In this document: positions 37,295-60,392 of the stretch, in pieces
Numbering within the stretch: the first letter of the stretch is position 1
Layout: the number at the start of each line of letters is the position of its first letter
Source of the DNA: an uncultured delta proteobacterium
GTDB lineage: Bacteria; Myxococcota_A; Polyangia; Fen-1088
NCBI GenBank assembly: GCA_963737265.1
Contig: CAVTRY010000014.1
Location: 390,714 to 454,713 of the forward strand
Direction of reading: 5' to 3'
DNA: 64,000 bases
Translations under genes and position numbers: made by a program
Notes under the pieces: model-generated
Seen by the model: the letters and a program-made list of their open reading frames with translations, nothing else
The model's database searches: none
What the model was told of the DNA's origin: nothing

Positions 37295-40200
37295 GTCACA
37301 ACGCCCCGCAAGGCTTGAGCAAGAGCACTGCGGGGCTCACGCAACTTCCGTGCCCCGCTGACCGACATCCTCCTTCATGGAGGCAGCGGCATGCGCAAAA
37401 CCTGCGACCGGGTACACCTATGCCCGCCGGGAGCCGGAAAAGACCGCCCTTTTCCAGGTGCTCCAGCAGCATCTTCTGACCTTCGAGCAGGAGTGGACCG
37501 ACAAGTCCGACGGCCGCACGCTGCCCAGCTTCGTCACCGACGAGCTGCACGACTTCCTAGGGTGTGGAATCTTGGCGCGGGGCTTCGCACAACTTTTCTG
37601 TAAAACCTGCCACGAGCGGTATGCGGTGGCTTGGTCCTGCAAAGGTCGTGGTTTCTGTCCGAGCTGTGGCGGCAGACGCATGAACGCGGGGGCGCTGACT
37701 CTCGTCGACCACGTGCTGCCCGAAGTGCCCATCCGACAATTCGTGCTTACGCTGCCTTTCCCTCTGAGGTTTCCCTTGGCCTTCGACGGAAAACTACTCG
37801 GCCAAGTCCTGCGCATCTTCATCGACACCGTGGCGTCCAACTATCGCAAGCGCATGGCAGATCGGGGTATTGCCGACGGCGAGTGTGGCGCCGTCACTGT
37901 CATCCAGCGCGCCAACAGCGACCTGCGGCTCTCACCGCATTTTCATGTCCTCCAGCTCGATGGCTGCTACGCCCCTGGGCGCGACGGCGGTGCGCCCATC
38001 TTCCACCCGGCGCCGGAACTTGCCCAACAGGACGTCCTTGCCATCGTCGCGCGCGCCAGCAAGCGCATCCTCCGCTTCCTAAAGCGTCGCGGTGTCATCA
38101 CCCTCGTTACCGCCCCCGGCGACGGTGAGGTCACCGTCGTCACCGACGAAACCATGGGCGACAAAGATCCGCTCCTGGCCCGCTTGTTGGCCGCCGCCAC
38201 CGCTGGCGCCTCTCCCGCCGGTCCTGCGCACAAGCGCGCTCTCGTGCGTATCGTGCTCGACCCAGACGCCACTCCCGTGGCCAAGGGCAAGCTATGCGGC
38301 CAGCAAGCCGGGTTTAACCTGCATGCTCAGACCAAGGTCGCCGCCAACGACAAGAAGGGTCGCGAGAACCTGTGCAAGTACATCTTGCGCCCGCCCCTGG
38401 CCAACGACCGCCTCAAGATCCTCGACGACGGTCACGTGAGGCTGGAGTTCAAGCGGCCTTGGTCCGATGGCACATCGTCAGTTGACCTTGCGCCGCTCGC
38501 CCTTATTGCGCGCTTGGCGGCCTTGGTTCCCCCTCCTCGTCGGCATGTCGTCAGATACTCGGGGGTCATCTCCTCGCACTCCAGCCTCCGCAGCCAAGTC
38601 GTCCCAGTCCCCGCCGTGGCCGCGCCCGAGGAAGACGACAAGCCTTCACTGCCACTTTCACACTACATTTCCTGTGAAGTGGACCCCTTTGGTAGGACCA
38701 GAAATGGCCCGAGCTAAGAGAGAGTCCGCGTGGGTTTGTTTGTAGATCCGGGTGAGCCTCGCCGGCAAGGAAATTGTTGAGAGCGGAGGCATGCTGATGG
38801 CTGCTGTCCACGGATGCAATGCGCGCACGGCCCCACAGAAGCAGGTGAACGCGTTGCAGTTGTGGGCAGCGTGCCATCAGCATGATGCAGCGGCGATTTA
38901 GGCGGCCTCTTTCATCGCCGACTTCTTTAGTTCGAATTCGTAAAACGCTACGGGTGTCTGAAATCCAAGGGTTTGGTGAGGCCGCCTGTGGTTGTACTTG
39001 TCCAGGTAGATCGCGATGCCACTGCGGGCGTCGGCCACGTCTCGGTAGTCGTTCAAGTAGACCTCCTCGCATTTGACAGACCGCCATAGACGCTCGACGA
39101 AGATGTTGTCCATGAATCGGCCGCGACCGTCCATGCTGACCTTTACGCCCTTGTCCAGCAAAACCGATGTGAAGTTGTCGTCGGTAAACTGCGACCCCTG
39201 GTCGGTGTTGAAGATCTCCGGCAAGCCGAAGTTCGCAAGAGCTTCTTCCACGACCTCGATGCAAAAACGGCTGTCCATCGTGTTTGAAATGCGCCAGGAC
39301 AGAACCCGGCGCGTGTACCAATCCATCACGGCGACCAGGTAGCAATGCCCCTGTCTCGTCGGGATGTACGTGATATCCGAGGCCCACACCTGATTGGGCC
39401 GAATGATCGCGAGATGGCGCAGCAAGTACGGGAATTTCGTATGTTCCGGCGCGGGGACGGTCGTCCGTGGTTTGGGCGCCAGCGCTTCGATGCCCATGAT
39501 TCGCATCAGTCTCTGCACCCGTTTGCGATTCACCGTCTGCCCCTGTGCCTTTAGCAACCGTGACAGCTTCCGGCTGCCGAATGCTGGCAATTCGAGATGC
39601 AGCTTGTCCAGCTCCTTGCAGATGGCCAGATCTTCCTCTGCCATCGGCATCGGCTCCCAGTAGATGCCCGATCTCGCAAGATTCAGCAGCTCGCACTGCC
39701 GACGGACAGATAGGTCGTTGTGGGGCTCGATCATGGCGCGCTTCTCCGTCAGCGAATGCGCGCGAGCCCGCGTGCTAAAAAATCATTCTCCAGCGTCAGC
39801 TGCCCCACCTTGCGCAGCAATTCCGATTCGCGTTCGGCGTTCGCCGATTCCTCTGCATTTGCATGGCCTGGTTCGAAAACCATGGCCAGCCGTGTGACGG
39901 CTTCCTTCTTCCACTTGTGAACCAGGTTCGGGTTGATCTTGTATCGGCGCCCGATCTCCACAACCGTTGCCTGCTCCCGCATGGCTTCGAGAGCTACCTG
40001 CGCCTTGAAGAGTGCTGTGTGCTTTTGGCGGTTCGTTTTCATCGTGTCCTGCCTCGTTGTTGAGGCGGACTACACCTTAGCTCCTGGTCCCATTTTTGGG
40101 GTCCACTTCACTGGTCCCAGCTTCTGAAAAAAACGTTCGAGATCGACACCGTCTGCCCTCGCTGCAAAACACCTCTGCGCCTCATCGCCATGATCGAGAC

Positions 40201-41037: not shown

Positions 41038-44000
41038 ATGACAAAGCCCACCATCAGTTTGCAAGAACTTCGAGCGAAGATAGGCCAACGGGCGAAGTCC
41101 GCCCCTGCGCATCGCTTTTGGGGATTGCACGTCCACATCATGAAACTCGATACGCTCGAAGCGGCGTACTTGGAGGCCAAGCGCAATGGCGGAGCCCCTG
41201 GGTCCGACGACGAGACGTTCGAGTGCTGAGCGACAATTACATCTCCCCAAAGACGACAGCTACGTCGCCCCGCTTTGAGGCGCGACGGTGACCGTGAGGT
41301 AGACCTCCAAGCCCGCAAGCGGGCAGGAGGCACCTTTGAAGCCGGTCACCGACGCCCAAGTGAGGCGTTTGATGGAAGAGATGAGCAAGATTGGAAAAGT
41401 AGGCCAGGCCGCCATGAAGGCGGGCATGGACCGGAAGACAGGGCGGCGATACATCGCCGCGGGCAAGCTACCGTCGGAGCTACGGCAGCCGCGGTGGTGG
41501 CGGACGCGCCCTGACGCGTTCGCCGAGGACTGGCCAGCCGTGGCCAAGTTGCTGGAGGAAACGCCTGGGCTGGAGGCTCAGACGGTGCTGGAGCTGCTGG
41601 AGGCGAAGCAGCCAGGGCGGTACAACGAGAGCCATCTTCGGACAATGCAGCGGCGAATCCGTCGCTGGCGGGCCGAGCATGGTCCTGCGCGTGAGATTTG
41701 GTTCACGCAGGCGCATCGGCCCGGTGAAGCCGCGCAAACCGACTTCACGTCGACGGCGGAGCTTGGTGTGACGATCGTGGGCCAGCTATTTGTGCACCTT
41801 TTGTGCGTGACGGTGCTGCCGTACTCGAACTGGCAATGGGCGACCGCGTGTCTGTCGGAGTCTCTGGCAGCGCTTCGGCGAGGGATCCAGTCGGCGCTGT
41901 TCCAGCTTGGGCGGGTGCCGCGATACCACCAAACCGACCACTCGACGGCGGCGACACATCAGATCGCTCGCGATGCGGAAGATCGCACTTTCAACGATGA
42001 ATACAAGGCGGTCATGCGGCACCTCGGAATGGAGCCACGAACTACAGCCGTCGGGGCCAAGGAACAAAACGGCGATGTGGAGGCCAGCAACGGCGCGCTC
42101 AAGCGTCGGCTTGAACAAGCGTTGCTGGTGCGTGGCAGCCGCGACTTCGCGGACCAAGACGACTACGAACGCTTCGTAGCCAAGGTGGTCCGCAAAGCCA
42201 ACGCTTCGCGAGGCCCGCGCGTCGCCGAGGAGATCGAAGCCATGCGGCCGCTGGTGGTGGAGCGTTTGCCGGAGTACGCAGAAATGACGGCACCTGTGGC
42301 GTCGACGAGCACCATCCGGGTCAAGTCGTGCGCCTACTCGGTGCCGTCGAGGCTGATCGGCGCACGGGTGAGAGTCCGCGTGTTCGAGCACCGAATCGAG
42401 GTGTACTACGCCGACAACTTGGAATTGGCCTGCGACAGGCTGCGAGGCAAGACCGCGCGCATCGACTACCGGCACGTCATCTGGTCTTTGGTGCGCAAGC
42501 CGGGCGCGTTTTCTCGCTACGTCTACCGAGAAGAGCTGTTTCCAAGCGTGACTTTCAGGCGGGCATACGACGCGATCCAGGCGACCAAGCCTGGAATCAA
42601 AGGCGACGTTGAATACCTGCGCATTCTTCACCTGGCCGCCAGCACGATGGAAGCCGATGTTGAGCAAGCGCTCACGACTCTGCTTGCCGATGGGACCATC
42701 TTGACGGCGGATGCAACCAAGAAGAGATGCACACAGGCGACGGACAGTACCTATCCACCGAGCGTCCCCGCGCTCGAAGCACCGCTGGTCGATCTCGCGT
42801 CCTACGACCTGCTCCTCGAACAGGTGGCATCATGACCAACGTCTCCGTAGACACGGTCAAGCCGAGCGCGCTCGACGCTCTGCTGGTGCTTCTGCGCGCG
42901 CTCAAGCTGCCTGCCTTCACCCGGCACGCCGAGGAGATCGCGATCAAGGCCAGCCGCGAGGGGTGGACCTTCAGCCAATACCTCCAGCACCTGGCCGAAC
43001 TGGAAATCGAAGAGCGCCGAACCCGTCGCATCGATCGCGCGCTTCGCGATTCGGACCTTCCCACGGAGAAAACCCTGGCCACCCTGGAACGTGGTCGGCT
43101 GTCACCCAAGGTGATGAAGCAGATGGCGAGCCTGTGTGAGGGTGGCTTTGTCGAACGTGGGGAGAACCTGCTCGTCTTCGGACTGCCCGGCCGAGGCAAA
43201 AGTCACGTTGTGGCTGCCATCGGCCACGAACTCATCCGGCGCGGCTACCGGGTCCTCTTCACGCCGACCTTCGCGCTTGTCCAGAGGCTGCTGGCCGCCA
43301 AGCGCGACCTTCGCCTGGAACGAGAACTGGCCGCGCTCGACATCTATCACGCCGTGATCCTCGACGACATCGGCTACGTCCAGCAGAGCCGCGATGAAAT
43401 GGAGGTCCTTTTCACCTTCCTGGCCGAGCGGTACGAACGCAAGAGCGTCCTCATCACCAGCAACCTGGTCTTCAGCGATTGGATCCGCATTTTCAAGGAT
43501 CCCATGACCACCGCCGCCGCCATCGACCGACTGGTCCACCACGCGGTCATCCTTGAGATGACCGGCCCCAGCTACCGCAGCGAAGAAGCACGAAAGAGAG
43601 GCGTCACCACCCCAGCGACAACTACGACAACTACCGATCAACCAACGACAACTACCCCCGACAACAATGGGGCGATGTAATTGACGTCACCGGGTGAATG
43701 TAGTTGACGTCCAGCAGTTCGAGGCGATTGAGGCGCAGGGCCGAGGAGAGTTTCTCGCGAAACTCGCCGAGGAACTGCGCACGGACGCGTACCACCCGAG
43801 GCCGTATCGTCGGAGAGAGATTCCTAAGGAAGGCGGCAAAGTCGGCGTGATTTCGATTCCTGCGATTCGAGACCGCGTGGTGCAAGGCGCCCTCCGGCTT
43901 ATTGTGGAACCAATCTTCGAAGCCGACTTCTCGGACAGTTCGTATGGGGCGAGGCCGGGACGAAGCGCGCACGAGGCAATCGAGAAAGTGCGAGTGGGAC

Positions 44001-44818
44001 TGAACCAGGGCCGACACCGCGTGGTCGACGTCGATCTGTCGCGCTACTTCGATACGATTCGGCACGACCGAATCTTGGCGAAGGTGGCAGGGCGGGTTGT
44101 CGACAGCGATGTACTGGCCATGGTGAAACAGTTTCTCAAGAGCACTGGCGACCAAGGCGTGCCACAAGGCTCGCCGCTGTCACCACTCCTCGCGAACCTC
44201 GCGCTCGACAACCTGGACCACGCTCTCGATCGAGGAGGCGACACCATCACCTATGCCCGATACCTGGACGACATGGTCGTGCTCGCGGCCGACACCCCCA
44301 AGGGGCGGCAGTGGGCAGACCGAGCGCTTATGCGCATCCGCCAAGAGGCGGAGGCCATCGGCGTGTCGCTCAACGCAGAGAAGACCCGTTTGGTTACGAT
44401 AACGGAGCCAAGGGCCAGCTTCGCGTTTCTGGGATTCGAGTTCCGTTGGGAACGGAGCTCGAAGACTGGAACATGGTATTCGAGCAGAACCCCGCGACCG
44501 AAGAAGGTCATTGCGGTCCTACAGGAACTTGGAAACATCCTGCGCCGGAGCCGCCACTTGCCTATGCAAGCGGCAGTGGCGCAGGTGAACCGGGTCCTGC
44601 GGGGCTGGGTGAACTACTTTCGAGTCGGCAACTCGGGGACGGCGTTCGGCAAAATCAAGTACGAGGTCGAGCGCAAGGTGAGGCGACTGGCGGCCAAGAA
44701 GCGCAAGCGCAAGGGATTCGGCTGGAAGCGGTGGAGTAGCGCCGTGGTGTACGGAACGTGGGGTCTCTTTCGAGACTACCGCGTGGTGTACTGGAACGCG
44801 AAAGCCTGCCCCAACTGA
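41038..44818 (+). pseudogene. ltrA: Intron-encoded reverse transcriptase/maturase split by IS21-A; no endonuclease domain
   Basis: GGAPGSD, RDRVVQ, PQGSPLSPLLAN, RYLDD, LRGWVNYF. Confidence 0.9.
41224..43716 (+). mobile_element. IS21-A copy 3 (intact: istA 41336-42835, istB 42832-43680)
   Basis: 7-bp TSD GTTCGAG. Confidence 0.95.
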
Positions 44819-45093: not shown

Positions 45094-45876
45094 TCAGCCA
45101 CGCCCGGGTCTAACGAAGCCGCCATTGCCGCGCCCTGGTAGGACGAATCCACCATCGCCCAGGCCCGGGAATGTGAAGCCGCCGTCGCCCTGCCCCGGAA
45201 TTGGGAATGTGAAGCCGCCGTCGCCCTGCCCCGGAATTGGGAATGTGAAGCCGCCGTCGCCCTGCCCCGGAATTGGGAATGTGAAGCCGCCGTCGCCCTG
45301 CCCCGGAATTGGGAATGTGAAGCCGCCGTCGCCCTGCCCCGGAATTGGGAATGTGAAGCCGCCGTCGCCCCGCCCCGGAATTGGGAATGTGAAGCCGCCG
45401 TCGCCCATACTGGGAATAGTGATGCCCGCATCGCCCAAACCGGGGATCGGATTTCCACCGCCGCCCGGGATCGGAATGGTGACGCTGGCGTCTCCGGGAC
45501 CATGGATCACGATGCCCGCGTCGGTCACGACCGGAGTGTTGCCGCCGACCGGGATCGGAATTGTGACGCTGCTGTCGCCTGGACCATGAACGACGATGCC
45601 ACCGTCTGTCACGACCGGCATTGCAAAGCCACCAGCGCCAGAGCCTGGACCGGCGAAGCCACCAGCACCGAACCCATTTGCGCCGGCTAGGCCCGTCGAA
45701 CCCTTGGCTCCGCCCGCGCCGCCCGAGCTCCCGCCGGCACCGGTCTTGCCGCCGCTGCCCTTCGCACCGCCCGTACCAGGTGTGAGGCCGCCGACATTCG
45801 ACGAGCAGCCCAGCGCACCGGCAAATGCGATAATCGCACCGGCAAGGCATGTGTTCAATCGAGACGCATTCTTCAT
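45094..45876 (-). CDS. Gly-rich lipoprotein with 12-aa repeats
   Basis: ALGC lipobox; (FTFPIPGQGDGG)n. Confidence 0.8.
   Translation of the reverse strand: MKNASRLNTCLAGAIIAFAGALGCSSNVGGLTPGTGGAKGSGGKTGAGGSSGGAGGAKGSTGLAGANGFGAGGFAGPGSGAGGFAMPVVTDGGIVVHGPGDSSVTIPIPVGGNTPVVTDAGIVIHGPGDASVTIPIPGGGGNPIPGLGDAGITIPSMGDGGFTFPIPGRGDGGFTFPIPGQGDGGFTFPIPGQGDGGFTFPIPGQGDGGFTFPIPGQGDGGFTFPIPGQGDGGFTFPGLGDGGFVLPGRGNGGFVRPGRG
45167..45406. repeat. 36-bp coding tandem repeat, about 6.7 copies
   Basis: GGGAATGTGAAGCCGCCGTCGCCCTGCCCCGGAATT with no spacers. Confidence 0.95.
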
Positions 45877-49890: not shown

Positions 49891-50143
49891 CGAGAATGTG
49901 CGAGCCAATAGTCAACCAGCGCCACCGCCAATCGGCGAACCGCAAACCCTAGACCAGCCAGCCACGCATGCCGCTGAAGAACCTTCATTTCACGCCGCTG
50001 CGCCACACTTTGAAGGCATCCACGAAACGAAGAAAGAGACGGACATTTGCCCGAGAGTGCACGGCTGCCCCCCTTTGTGTGACCCCATGAAGGGGTCTAG
50101 AGGTGGGGGTAAAATTCATGGCGTTGCCGAAGAGCGCCGGGCC

Positions 50144-51145
50144 ATAGGCGATTCGAAGCGGTATTTTGAGCGTTGGAGAACCCTGCCGGACCGCATCAGG
50201 TCGGCCCCGATCACGTTGGCGCAGCGCACTTGACCGGGTTTCGGGGGTCTGACGGGGTCTTTCTCGAGCCGCAGGGCAGTCGACTCCATCCCGACCTGGT
50301 CGACGTGCCGTCAGTTCAGCCAGTCTCCGCCCTCGCCACCAGATCGCGAGGGAGGCGGCCGTGCGGGCCAGAGGTTGGGCGGCTCGGCGACGGGCGCGGC
50401 GCAGCCGCGTGGGGCAGGGGCAGGGTGGGTAGGCCCAAGGCTCCGAAGGAGCAGGGCAAGCCCATGGCAGAGAGAATCTTCTTGATGGTGTCCTCGGTCT
50501 CGACCATGGCGATGAGGCGCAGCGGGGTTTTGCAGCGAGGGCAGACGGTGTCGATCTCGAACGTATTTTTCAGAAGCTGGGACCAGGAAATGTAGTGTGA
50601 AAGTGGCAGTGAAGGCTTGTCGTCTTCCTCGGGCGCGGCCACGGCGGGGACTGGGACGACTTGGCTGCGGAGGCTGGAGTGTGACGAGATGACCCCCGAG
50701 TATCTGACGACATGCCGACGAGGAGGGGGAACCAAGGCCGCCAAGCGCGCAATAAGGGCGAGCGGCGCAAGGTCAACTGACGATGTGTCCCTACGGGACT
50801 AGGGCCTACCCACCCAACCCCTGCCCCACGCGGCTTCGCCGCGCCCGTCGCCGACGGACCAAGGCCGCTTGAACTCCAGCCTCACGTGACCGTCGTCGAG
50901 GATCTTGAGGCGGTCGTTGGCCAGCGGCGGGCGCAAGATGTACTTGCACAGGTTCTCGCGACCCTTCTTGTCGTTGGCGGCGACCTTGGTCTGCGCATGC
51001 AGGTTAAACCCGGCTTGCTGGCCGCATAGCTTGCCCTTGGCCACGGGAGTGGCGTCTGGGTCGAGCACGATACGCACGGGCGACGGGCGCGGCGAAGCCG
51101 CGTGGGGCAGGGGTTGGGCGGGCAGGCCCTAGCGCGCTTGTGCGG
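50144..51145 (-). mobile_element. IS91-like 3' remnant with three 52-bp insertions
   Basis: Colinear with the other copies apart from inserts near 50386, 50788 and 51079. Confidence 0.85.
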
Positions 51146-53557: not shown

Positions 53558-53795
53558 ACACGAACGGAATCAGCTTGTGGACCCGCTTCTGATAGACCGC
53601 GTAGGCGGGATACTTGGCGGAAAGCCAGCGCTCCTCGCGGCGCGACTTCACGTCGAGGAACAGTAATAGCACGATGGCATACATCGCCGTCAGCGGGCCG
53701 CGCACAAAGAGGGCCCAGCCGAGAGCGAGGGCGAAGCCACCGCAGTAGATGGGATGGCGGACGAATCCATAGACCCCGGTCTGGATGAGCTGACC

Positions 53796-55708
53796 ATAGG
53801 GGAATCAAAGGGTGTTTTGAGCGTCGGAGAACCCTGCCGGACCGCATCAGGTCGGCCCCGATCGCGTTGGCGCGGCGCGCTTGACCGGATTTCTGGGGCC
53901 TGACGGGGTCTTTCTCGAGCACGCAGGGCAGTCGACTCCATCCCGACCTGGTCGACGTGCCGTCAGTTCAGCCAGTCTCCGCCCTCGCCACCAGATCGCG
54001 AGGGAGGCGGCCGTGCGGGCCAGAGTTTGGGCGGCTCGGTGGGCAAGCCCATGGCAGAGAGAATCTTCTTGATGGTGTCCTCGGTCTCGACCATGGCGAT
54101 GAGGCGCAGCGGGGTTTTGCAGCGAGGGCAGACGGTGTCGATGTCGAACGTCCTTTTCAGGAGCTGGCTCCAAGAAATGTAGTGGGAAAGGGGCAGTGAA
54201 GGCTTGTCGTTTTCCTCGGGCGTGGCCGCGGCCGGGACTGGGACGACTTGGCTACGGAGGCTGGAGTGTGACGAGATGACCCCCGAATATCTGACGACAT
54301 GACGACGCGGAGGGGGATGATCGCGGCTAGCCTGGCAATAAGGGCGAGCGGCGCAAGGTCGACCGACGATGTGCCATCGGACCACGGGCGCTTGAACTCC
54401 AACCTCACGTCACCATCGTCGAGGATCTTGAGGCGGTCGTTGGCGAGGGGCGGGCGCAAGATGTACTTGCACAGGTTCTCGCGACCCTTCTTGTCGTTGG
54501 CGGCGACTTTGGTCTGGGCATGCAGGTTGAACCCGGCATGCTGGGCGCATAGTCTGCCTTTGGCCACGGGCGTGGCGTCGGGGTCGAGCACGATGCGCAC
54601 AGGCGCCCGCTTGTGCGCGGGGCCGGCGGGGGAGGCTCCGGCGGTGGCGGCGGCCAGGAGTCGGGCCAGGAGCGGATCCTTCTCGCCGATGGTTTCGTCG
54701 GTGACGACGGTGACTTCACCGTCGCCTGGCGCGGTGACGAGGGTGATGACCCCGCGACGCTTTAGGAAGCGGAGGATGCGCTTACTGGTGCGTTCGACGA
54801 TGGCAAGGACATCCTCTTGGGTAAGTTCCGGCGCCGGGTGGAAGATGGGGGAACCGCCGTCGCGGCCAGGGGCGTACACGCCATCGAGCTGGAGAACGTG
54901 GAAATGCGGGGAGAGACGCAGGTCGCTGTTGGCGCGCTGGATGACAGTGACGGCGCCAGACTCGCCGTCGGTAATCCCCCGATCTGCCATGCGCCTGCGA
55001 TAGTTGGACGCGACGGTGTCGATGAAGATGCGCAGGACTTGGCCGAGCAATTTCCCTTCGAAGGCTAAGGGAAATCTCAGCGGGAAAGGCACGGTCAGCA
55101 CGAATTGTCGGATGGGCACTTCGGGCAGGACGTGGTCGACCAGAGTCAGGGCGCCCGCGTTCATGCGTCTGCCGCCGCAGCTCGGACAGAAGCCGCGACC
55201 TTTGCAGCTCCAGGCCACCGCATACCGCTGGTGGCAGGTCTTACACAAAAGTTGCGCGAAGCCCCGCGCGAGGATGCCACAGCCTAGGAAGTCGTGCAGC
55301 TCGTCGGTCACGAAGCTGGGCAGCGTGCGGCCGTCGGACTTGTCGGTCCACTCTTGCTCGAAGGTCAGAAGGTGTTGCTGGAGCACCTGGAAGAGCGCGG
55401 TCTTCTCGGGCTCCCGGCGGGCATAGGTGTAGCCGGTCGCAGGTCTTGCGCATGCCGCTGCCTCCATGAAAGAAGATGTCGGTCAGCGGGTCACGGAAGT
55501 TGCTTGAGCACGCCCTCAGCGCCCCGCGCCTTCGTCCGGGGGCGGTTCGCTGTCGCGCTGGTTGAGGCAGGCGGCCACGGCGGCGACCAGGCTGCGGCGG
55601 TGGCGGCTCTTGGGGCCCAAGGCAGGCCCAAGGCAGTCGGCTGACTCTTGGTAGCTTGCTGAGATCGGACTGCTGCTCCCCGAGCTGCCTCTCGAAGTGC
55701 GTTTGCAT
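53796..55708 (-). mobile_element. IS91/ISCR-like element; transposase 55467-53963 with a -1 indel near 54313
   Basis: Direct repeat of 58478-60392; HUH transposase. Confidence 0.9.
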
Positions 55709-58422: not shown

Positions 58423-58477
58423 ACAGTGTGCGGGAGCGCCGTGCAGGCCATGGGCGACGCCAAGCTCAAGATTGACC

Positions 58478-60392
58478 ATAGGGGAATCAAAGGGTGTTTT
58501 GAGCGTCGGAGAACCCTGCCGGACCGCATCAGGTCGGCCCCGATCGCGTTGGCGCGGCGCGCTTGACCGGATTTCTGGGGCCTGACGGGGTCTTTCTTGA
58601 GCACGCAGGGCAGTCGACTCCATCCCGACCTGGTCGACGTGCCGTCAGTTCAGCCAGTCTCCGCCCTCGCCACCAGATCGCGAGGGAGGCGGCCGTGCGG
58701 GCCAGAGTTTGGGCGGCTCGGTGGGCAAGCCCATGGCAGAGAGAATCTTCTTGATGGTGTCCTCGGTCTCGACCATGGCGATGAGGCGCAGCGGGGTTTT
58801 GCAGCGAGGGCAGACGGTGTCGATGTCGAACGTCCTTTTCAGGAGCTGGCTCCAAGAAATGTAGTGGGAAAGGGGCAGTGAAGGCTTGTCGTTTTCCTCG
58901 GGCGTGGCCGCGGCCGGGACTGGGACGACTTGGCTACGGAGGCTGGAGTGTGACGAGATGACCCCCGAATATCTGACGACATGACGACGCGGAGGGGGGA
59001 TGATCGCGGCTAGCCTGGCAATAAGGGCGAGCGGCGCAAGGTCGACCGACGATGTGCCATCGGACCACGGGCGCTTGAACTCCAACCTCACGTCACCATC
59101 GTCGAGGATTCTTGAGGCGGTCGTTGGCGAGGGGCGGGCGCAAGATGTACTTGCACAGGTTCTCGCGACCCTTCTTGTCGTTGGCGGCGACTTTGGTCTG
59201 GGCATGCAGGTTGAACCCGGCATGCTGGGCGCATAGTCTGCCTTTGGCCACGGGCGTGGCGTCGGGGTCGAGCACGATGCGCACAGGCGCCCGCTTGTGC
59301 GCGGGGCCGGCGGGGGAGGCTCCGGCGGTGGCGGCGGCCAGGAGTCGGGCCAGGAGCGGATCCTTCTCGCCGATGGTTTCGTCGGTGACGACGGTGACTT
59401 CACCGTCGCCTGGCGCGGTGACGAGGGTGATGACCCCGCGACGCTTTAGGAAGCGGAGGATGCGCTTACTGGTGCGTTCGACGATGGCAAGGACATCCTC
59501 TTGGGTAAGTTCCGGCGCCGGGTGGAAGATGGGGGAACCGCCGTCGCGGCCAGGGGCGTACACGCCATCGAGCTGGAGAACGTGGAAATGCGGGGAGAGA
59601 CGCAGGTCGCTGTTGGCGCGCTGGATGACAGTGACGGCGCCAGACTCGCCGTCGGTAATCCCCCGATCTGCCATGCGCCTGCGATAGTTGGACGCGACGG
59701 TGTCGATGAAGATGCGCAGGACTTGGCCGAGCAATTTCCCTTCGAAGGCTAAGGGAAATCTCAGCGGGAAAGGCACGGTCAGCACGAATTGTCGGATGGG
59801 CACTTCGGGCAGGACGTGGTCGACCAGAGTCAGGGCGCCCGCGTTCATGCGTCTGCCGCCGCAGCTCGGACAGAAGCCGCGACCTTTGCAGCTCCAGGCC
59901 ACCGCATACCGCTGGTGGCAGGTCTTACACAAAAGTTGCGCGAAGCCCCGCGCGAGGATGCCACAGCCTAGGAAGTCGTGCAGCTCGTCGGTCACGAAGC
60001 TGGGCAGCGTGCGGCCGTCGGACTTGTCGGTCCACTCTTGCTCGAAGGTCAGAAGGTGTTGCTGGAGCACCTGGAAGAGCGCGGTCTTCTCGGGCTCCCG
60101 GCGGGCATAGGTGTAGCCGGTCGCAGGTCTTGCGCATGCCGCTGCCTCCATGAAAGAAGATGTCGGTCAGCGGGTCACGGAAGTTGCTTGAGCACGCCCT
60201 CAGCGCCCCGCGCCTTCGTCCGGGGGCGGTTCGCTGTCGCGCTGGTTGAGGCAGGCGGCCACGGCGGCGACCAGGCTGCGGCGGTGGCGGCGCTTGGGGC
60301 CCAAGGCAGGCCCAAGGCAGTCGGCTGACTCTTGGTAGCTTGCTGAGATCGGACTGCTGCTCCCCGAGCTGCCTCTCGAAGTGCGTTTGCAT
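58478..60392 (-). mobile_element. IS91/ISCR-like element; transposase 60151-58645 with a +1 indel near 59110
   Basis: Direct repeat of 53796-55708. Confidence 0.9.

Follow-up and report, generated by a model that had tools for sequence, protein, structure and literature searches.

The window, a stretch of 64,000 nt from a soil myxobacterium, carries three copies of a short hairpin-bearing unit that looks like a parasite of a parasite, switching off IS91 jumping genes. Aligning filled with empty sites showed that the element is gained or lost between near-identical copies of an insertion sequence (IS), and its target range, IS91/ISCR-type transposase genes, is unusual and well supported. Judging from the reading frames, the element disrupts the transposase gene by a stop codon or a frameshift. 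Our preferred reading, to which we give an even chance of being correct, is that of a non-autonomous mini-insertion element of 50-66 nt, which would be inserted into these genes as single-stranded DNA (ssDNA) during the rolling-circle stage through a nick made by an HUH enzyme, the insertion being finished by copy-choice or repair.

The window corresponds to C14:390714-454713 of a 6.55 Mb genome of 25 contigs with ~63% G+C. A 40-mer from the unit matched it at three places, namely 50386-50425 (+, 3 mismatches), 50813-50852 (-, no mismatches) and 51079-51118 (+, no mismatches), and had no match in 100 dinucleotide-preserving shuffles, bearing out the three units reported in the first-pass annotation. 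The host, located by blastn against the genome at 50138-51144 (-), is a truncated copy of a ~1.92 kb IS91/ISCR-type IS that begins at the IS end lying downstream of the transposase gene and reaches roughly residue 293 of a 506-aa transposase (tblastn segments 293-481 and 483-506), with homology ending 13 nt beyond unit 3. An intact 506-aa open reading frame (ORF) elsewhere in the genome scored 81 bits with Pfam Y2_Tnp (cut-off 20.9) and 55.3 bits with Zn_Tnp_IS91 (cut-off 26.3); with NCBIfam models the best score was that of ISCR_clade_Ia (292 bits), with IS91 at 86.5 bits, both under their own cut-offs. The genome holds many copies of this element, several of them empty at the insert sites. 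Those used as comparators in the window were two full-length copies at 53792-55708 (-) and 58473-60392 (-), both empty at sites 1, 2 and 4; a partial copy at 37335-38674 (+), empty at sites 2, 3 and 4, has flanks 99-100% identical to the filled copy. All three are empty, in agreement with the earlier claim that other IS91-like copies lack the unit. Relative to the intact 506-aa ORF of the copy on C23, that at 53792-55708 shows a frame change near residue 389.

Unit boundaries were defined against empty copies in the same genome. Unit 1 (site 1, 50388-50453, +) consists of 66 nt in place of one T (empty CTCGG[T]GGGCAAG, filled CTCGG[CGAC...GGAGCA]GGGCAAG), antisense to the transposase gene and directly after the M-G-L-P codons (residues 481/484); it comprises the GCA-loop hairpin 1 CGCGGC-GCA-GCCGCG (50395-50409, +, also in the centroid fold), four G-runs and hairpin 2 GCTCC-GAA-GGAGC, and its empty allele on C20 at 39478 has a 100% identical flank. 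Unit 2 (site 2, 50787-50849, -) adds 63 nt between GGC and ACA (empty GATGGC^ACATCG, filled GAC...GTCCCGTAGGGAC), in sense orientation between the Gly and Thr codons of W-S-D-G/T (residues 369/370), bringing an in-frame TAG and the hairpin 2 GTCCC-GTA-GGGAC; the filled allele has two substitutions beside the junction (AT to TC), and the empty alleles (C14 429117, C12 30942 and C8 26654) have 100% identical flanks. Unit 3 (site 3, 51079-51130, +), 52 nt in place of AG (empty CGCACG[AG]AGCGCGC, at C14 428956 and C8 26798), lies antisense at about residues 293-296, ends at GGCCCT(AG) and is without the second hairpin. The hairpin CGCGGC-GNA-GCCGCG and the four G-runs, as well as the extra triloop hairpin of two units (units 1 and 2), were described beforehand and can be read directly in the sequence. 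Two further sites with known empty alleles were found outside the host copy, site 4 (empty CAATTCG[TGC]TTACGC, filled with CGAC...CCCTAG) and site 3b in a second transposase lineage (CGGCGGG^GGCCA, a clean insertion).

Filled and empty alleles with 99-100% identical flanks were thus available for sites 1, 2, 3, 3b and 4, and the pairs with fully identical flanks uphold the initial proposal of a small non-autonomous mobile element. At these five sites both terminal inverted repeats (TIRs) and target site duplications (TSD) are absent, and between 0 and 3 target bases are lost; the first-pass annotation likewise saw no duplication and counted 1-4 replaced bases. At its 5' end the unit always begins with (GG)CGAC following a target G, and the 3' end is ragged, falling at CCCT(AG) or past the second hairpin. 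Left flanks end only in G (TCGG, ATGG, TTCG, CGGG, CACG), and the 5' junctions show microhomology of 5, 3, 2, 2-3, 1 and 1 nt at the six sites with known empty alleles. With net lengths of +65, +63 (including a stop) and +50, the insertions disrupt the transposase frame. These lengths, together with the in-frame stop, rule out an intron-like or translational-bypass reading, and a matching take-off/landing codon with a stop, as for bypass, is absent in the sequence.

The host copy is indeed truncated, yet placing the inserts in one dead transposase proved too narrow, because they recur in other copies, other genomes and metagenomes. The triple of the window is found again on C23, with 99.9% identity over 1007 bp and different outer flanks, and C19 carries two of the three inserts. 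A full-length IS91/ISCR-type copy at C23:538502-540516 has five mini-insertions, four of them units (sites 4, 3, 2 and 1) and one a related 'variant B'; the remaining reading frame of this copy is largely intact, with 84-96% identity to the intact protein. Variant B, inserted at residue 255, has the hairpin CGCGC-GAA-GCGCG, G-runs and TCCCC-GAA-GGGGA; it occurs at C23:539342-539404, C14:368363-368425, C12:78923-78985 and C19:5880-5942, with a relative at C15:54551. Its insertion point is the native GGCGAC/GG, the same eight letters as the start of the main unit, a match that could be a 5-nt microhomology or could hint that the main unit acquired its 5' end there.

That the inserts are an assembly or sequencing artefact at G-rich hairpins is extremely unlikely. 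Repeats often end contigs and many of the metagenome matches lie at contig edges, as might be expected of an artefact, but the same unit was found at the same sites in many independent assemblies and its junctions are bridged by public contigs. Logan contigs from run X1, which may be the sample from which the window was assembled, run across unit 1 and across each junction of unit 3, and the empty forms of sites 1 and 2 are present on contigs of runs X1 and X4, which gives independent support. Contigs of run X15, an RNA library, cover the IS and one unit, although contigs cannot show transcription.

The genome-wide search suggested at the outset returned about 20 copies in the 6.55 Mb, with empty alleles at several sites. 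Eighteen are full units and two are atypical, one truncated (C11 668035) and one with the compensated hairpin variant GCGCGC-GAG-GCGCG (C22 94755). All 18 full units have a blastx match to IS91-type transposase on at least one flank and both atypical copies also lie within IS91 fragments; IS91-type transposase coding DNA makes up 44.5 kb, or 0.68%, of this genome. In 18 related genomes, 33 of 51 matches have IS91-type transposase sequence as a flank; of the 18 that do not, seven correspond to a diverged relative, most of the remaining ones have recognisably the same flanks or sit at contig ends, and a few (L055, L046, L066 and L068, for instance) appear to be truly outside recognisable transposase genes. 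No candidate enzyme was found among the ORFs around the few units located outside transposase genes. On metagenome contigs, 75 of 84 units are within IS91-type transposase genes, and the exceptions in both sets are mostly copies at contig edges or members of a diverged relative family. The suspected link to rolling-circle elements is therefore supported by a near-confinement seen in the unit's own genome, in related genomes and in metagenomes. The IS91 fragment at C22:94600-94800 has one unit at its catalytic CKY motif and, at site 2, half a unit in antisense orientation that is fused to a deletion of some 25 codons.

The unit has a narrow distribution. An exact 29-mer searched in one genome per species gave 18 loci, all in Myxococcales or 'delta proteobacterium' metagenome-assembled genomes, and a 28-mer with up to two mismatches matched 19 of the 89 genomes of the order. 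True units were confined to two genera of one Myxococcales family, g1 (the present genome and 8/12) and g11 (8/11), the single matches in g6 and g8 being a diverged intergenic relative. Searching metagenome contigs with an exact 32-mer yielded 96 stretches, of which the 80 examined hold the 84 units mentioned above; viral contigs gave no match to the unit. Nothing relevant was retrieved from Rfam for the window region or for five other loci, and in the literature searched, with ISfinder-type catalogues outside its scope, we came across no mini-element described as a specialist of transposase genes, so that, within Rfam and that literature, the unit is not one already catalogued. Y2_Tnp genes, present in 58/89 genomes and 17/19 genera, are far more widespread than the unit, which is therefore not intrinsic to these genes. 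Three intergenic stretches, C12:313500-313760, C12:370620-370880 and C21:80540-80760, are mosaics of several small repeated modules that include a diverged unit relative, GAG-GGCGCGGCGAAGCCGCG-GGGGG...GGACCCGAAGTGCC, present in other genera too.

Mapped on the 506-aa protein, the insertions fall into about 13 site clusters, in sense orientation at residues 127-129, 158-159, about 338 and 369-372, and in antisense orientation at residues 28, 60, 229-234, 286-288, 293-295, 391-392, 445, 452-455 and 481-489. Many of these clusters are on conserved motifs (RQF/V, CKY, WSDG/T, CPxCGG and LGLP), and near the mapped sites the metagenome contigs gave 45 antisense and 29 sense placements. Site 2 is filled in transposases of three deep clades, as little as about 35-45% identical to that of the window. 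A maximum likelihood tree for this site was built with 24 fragments (11 filled and 13 empty) from 53 candidates, after 29 had been dropped for coverage <60%, an internal stop or lack of a match at the E-value threshold. Four state changes are needed on this tree, the well-supported (starred) branches force at least three gains or losses, and a single origin was allowed by none of 200 bootstrap trees. Among the 11 site-2 copies, the unit core has a median identity of 88%, versus 61% and 57% for the 150-nt flanks, and core identity exceeds that of both flanks in 54 of 55 pairs. The tree, the core-versus-flank identities and the spread of Y2_Tnp together show, at the level of sequence, that the site 2 codon was entered several times and independently in diverged transposases, more recently than the clade split.

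It is unlikely that the unit spread passively, that is, by a few old chance insertions or templated repair events followed by recombination, gene conversion or template switching between IS91 copies, without a dedicated insertion activity. Such a history would fit the restriction of one form (TAA plus CCCC-GCA-GGGG) to site 2 and of another (CCCCT-GAAA-GGGG) to the C-terminal site, the location of occupied sites at conserved protein motifs, stretches in which even diverged copies have nucleotides in common, the 5' junction microhomology at six sites and the duplication of whole multiply-filled copies. About 13 different sites would, however, still require non-homologous entries, and neither the constant 5' boundary nor the recurrence of the same hairpin-2 variants at different sites is in keeping with it. 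Moreover, the site 2 flanks are just 57-61% identical between clades, and at site 4 the three bases adjoining the unit have stayed lineage-specific (TTCG versus TGGG), so that no co-conversion took place there. What makes a codon a target is not explained by its folding into a hairpin loop, as only site 2 lies in a triloop (CGATG-GCA-CATCG) and the other four sites do not. Breakpoints of IS91 copies were found within 25 nt of a unit in 7 of 83 cases, against a rough expectation of 4-5, an enrichment that is not convincing.

Read on the G strand, the unit is composed of the 5' end (GG)CGACGG, hairpin 1 (GCGCGGC-GNA-GCCGCG), a T, four G-runs, AGGCCCTAG and an optional second hairpin of the form NNCCC-GNA-GGGNN. 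Constraint was analysed on 110 distinct 75-mers from 139 units. Four canonical G-runs (at least 3 G with short loops, a G-quadruplex motif by sequence) are present in 89 of the 110 distinct units. In the 90 gap-free units, variants are seen in 24-34 copies at positions between G-runs and in 0-6 copies at positions within them, a comparison that draws on the third and fourth G-runs and the letters beside them because the first 32 letters of the metagenome units are fixed by the search pattern. Directly after CCCTAG, 55/95 units, as opposed to 13/95 shuffled tails, have a perfectly paired stem of 4 bp or more closed by a loop of 3-4 nt; at least 15 different stems are used, and the loop is GAA, GCA, GTA, GGA or GAAA in 50/55. 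This diversity of hairpin 2 stems is, by its pattern of changes, compensatory variation, and the alignments show G-runs and hairpin stems constrained while loops drift. Identical hairpin-2 variants are found at different gene sites, so this hairpin moves together with the element. In hairpin 1 most changes are single and disruptive, the compensated C22 variant being an exception; at its tip it has GCGAAGC or GCGCAGC, matching the motif GCGNAGC, described in PMC13037366 as an unusually stable DNA mini-hairpin. Fold energies were not exceptional relative to shuffles (G-strand z = -0.95, -0.97 and +0.04, from a nearest-neighbour model without quadruplexes).

The same conservation might be expected if the unit were a built-in module of IS91 (a switch, an attenuator or a terminus signal), ancient, under selection and precisely removed when transposase is needed. 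Conservation of the unit is far higher than that of the surrounding coding sequence, the stop at site 2 is kept as a stop in a TAG-to-TAA variant, and the variation preserves structure. We nevertheless judge this very improbable: intact 506-aa transposase ORFs exist without the unit, IS91-type genes of 15 other genera are devoid of it, the +65, +63 (with stop) and +50 insertions break the frame, the tree forces several gains or losses, and single disruptive changes pile up in hairpin 1.

The resident 1.92 kb IS91-type element has ends that do not resemble the unit, and the hairpin 1 sequence occurs nowhere in the genome outside units; a parent element or cognate transposase sharing the ends of the unit was therefore not found among the resident elements. 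The genome does encode a RAYT-like Y1 HUH family (307 aa) with sub-threshold scores, 46.9 bits with NCBIfam REP_Tyr_transpos (cut-off 80) and 19.2 with Pfam Y1_Tnp (cut-off 23), whose genes are at C16:130175-130774, C16:138359-138835, C22:93556-94143 and C23:170311-170907. All four are flanked by inverted 'stutter' arrays of unrelated short repeats and not by units; 10 nt that match hairpin 2 lie upstream of the C22 gene, but this match is not shared by the other three copies. Close homologues of this Y1 protein (at least 69% identity) were found only in the two unit-bearing genera, in 10/12 and 10/11 genomes. All 17 unit-positive genomes have a Y1 match, and the three Y1-negative genomes of those genera (G037, G040 and G050) are without units, one of them (G037) despite seven IS91 matches. 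Four Y1-positive, IS91-bearing genomes (G038, G041, G049 and G052) also have no units.

These data bear on the possibility that the unit belongs with REP or PATE-like repeats and owes its movement to the RAYT-like Y1 protein, with IS91 genes merely a preferred single-stranded target. The presence of the family with its sub-cut-off scores, its co-occurrence with the unit, the unit-free Y1-negative genomes and, as in IS200/IS605, a hairpin near each unit end and no target duplication all speak for this route, which we still regard as quite unlikely. The genomes are close kin and the co-occurrence is therefore not independent evidence, the four Y1-positive genomes with IS91 and no units break it, the repeats on either side of the Y1 genes are unrelated to the unit, the targets share no fixed tetranucleotide, and the units are unpaired and low in copy number. 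A link to a reverse transcriptase (RT) was also discarded, since the nine RVT_1 matches are of the group II intron type and have no consistent adjacency to units; the linked RAYT/TnpA or RT gene that the first-pass annotation had proposed to look for was accordingly not found. The window has two other features of note. An IS21-type IstB-like ATPase ORF (42727-43680) adjoins a 374-aa group II intron-type RT ORF (43694-44818) in the segment 42727-44818, the RT being without the N-terminal part seen in related copies at C14:373928 and C14:389887, and the product of an ORF at 45094-45876 (-) is rich in glycine, with a signal-like N-terminus followed by tandem GDGGFTFPIPGQ repeats.

Under the preferred reading of a mini-insertion element, the unit would be inserted as ssDNA while the IS copy is itself single-stranded or replicating in rolling-circle transposition. 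Cutting would be due to an HUH enzyme, the first candidate being the IS91-type Y2 transposase supplied by intact copies and the second the co-distributed RAYT-like Y1 protein. The fixed 5' end beside the target G would act like an origin end and the ragged 3' end like a sloppy terminus. According to the IS91 account in PMC13181058, this IS forms a bottom-strand ssDNA circle, has subterminal palindromes beside a cleavage tetranucleotide, makes no target duplication and often misses its terminus. The unit echoes this logic with its fixed 5' end by a target G, its ragged 3' end, the lack of duplication and its DNA-type hairpins; on the C strand its fixed end reads hairpin-CCC-GTCG, and GTCG is listed as a minor IS91 target in Table 2 of PMC13181058. 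Lost bases, microhomology and raggedness of the 3' end are not what clean HUH chemistry typically leaves, and copy-choice accounts for them no less well; insertion in both orientations would not be predicted for a single-strand target of one polarity. Also at odds with the preferred reading are the dissimilar ends of the resident element, the left flanks other than CTTG or GTTC, the unexceptional fold energies and the few units outside recognisable transposase genes. For these reasons we favor a start by an HUH nick with a copy-choice or repair finish: the 1-5 nt of junction microhomology and the 0-3 lost target bases suggest that joining would be completed in that manner rather than by clean transesterification.

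A more far-reaching version, which we hold to be quite doubtful, is a 'kill cassette', in which a trans-acting HUH enzyme, be it a RAYT-like protein domesticated by the host or the IS91 transposase attacking the gene that encodes it, would write the hairpin-plus-quadruplex ssDNA into conserved IS91/ISCR transposase codons. If true, this would be an undescribed kind of sequence-directed system limiting or hyperparasitising transposons. The mini-insertion element, if confirmed, would provide a naturally occurring tool for studying single-stranded intermediates in the IS91/ISCR group, relatives of which mobilise antibiotic-resistance genes. It would also be an instance of a transposon parasite inactivating its host element and a test case for a hairpin beside a G-quadruplex motif directing DNA insertion.

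Several known systems share features with the unit. It differs from a MITE in having neither TIRs nor a TSD at five sites. PATEs of the IS200/IS605 family have a hairpin near each end and insert without duplication, plausibly in a strand-specific manner as ssDNA, whereas the unit has no fixed tetra- or pentanucleotide target, no cognate TnpA with the same ends, and two hairpins that differ from each other. Rickettsia palindromic elements and organelle GC-cluster elements occupy many unrelated coding genes and are often in frame and tolerated; a Volvox paper (PMC2670323) reportedly deals with such mobile palindromic elements of organelle genomes. Like the unit, these are small structured selfish repeats in protein-coding genes, but the unit is directed to one gene family, at recurrent codons, and breaks the frame. 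Many units end in CTAG, and CTAG ends are also known from Helitron-like elements. With IS91/ISCR elements and their deletion derivatives the unit shares the lack of target duplication, one fixed and one sloppy end, subterminal hairpins and, presumably, ssDNA intermediates. It departs from them in its ends, unlike those of resident elements, in the loss of target bases and in its size of only 50-66 nt, and its targets end in G while those of IS91 are CTTG or GTTC (Table 2 of PMC13181058).

The comparison with REP and REPIN sequences deserves more space, as the unit had been called REP-like, a designation that did not hold for a low-copy, intragenic and unpaired repeat that does not flank RAYT-like genes. 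Both are short GC-rich hairpin repeats, non-autonomous and presumed to depend on ssDNA and HUH enzymes for their movement; REPs may lie within ORFs, and the unit, like the CGTC REPs, lacks a transposase gene flanked by it. PMC3733652 describes 'CGTC-tagged' REPs as lacking a dedicated transposase, gives GTAG or CGTC as REP heads, and mentions Rickettsia palindromic elements. The head of the unit is instead (GG)CGACGG, and its copies number about 20 against hundreds for REPs. Full units are intragenic in 18/18 cases in their own genome, whereas REPs are extragenic, and they are single, with nearest neighbours 200-400 nt apart at different gene sites, in contrast to the inverted pairs of REPINs. 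The G-run tract and the second hairpin are also unlike REPs, and the Y1 genes are not flanked by units. Small hairpin repeats are thus already known; neither near-confinement to the transposase genes of one IS family nor re-entry into the same codons of transposases with identities down to about 35-40% was found described in the literature searched. By its sequence features, the unit somewhat resembles a REP, a PATE or a mini-IS91 and yet departs from each of them in the very properties by which these elements are defined.
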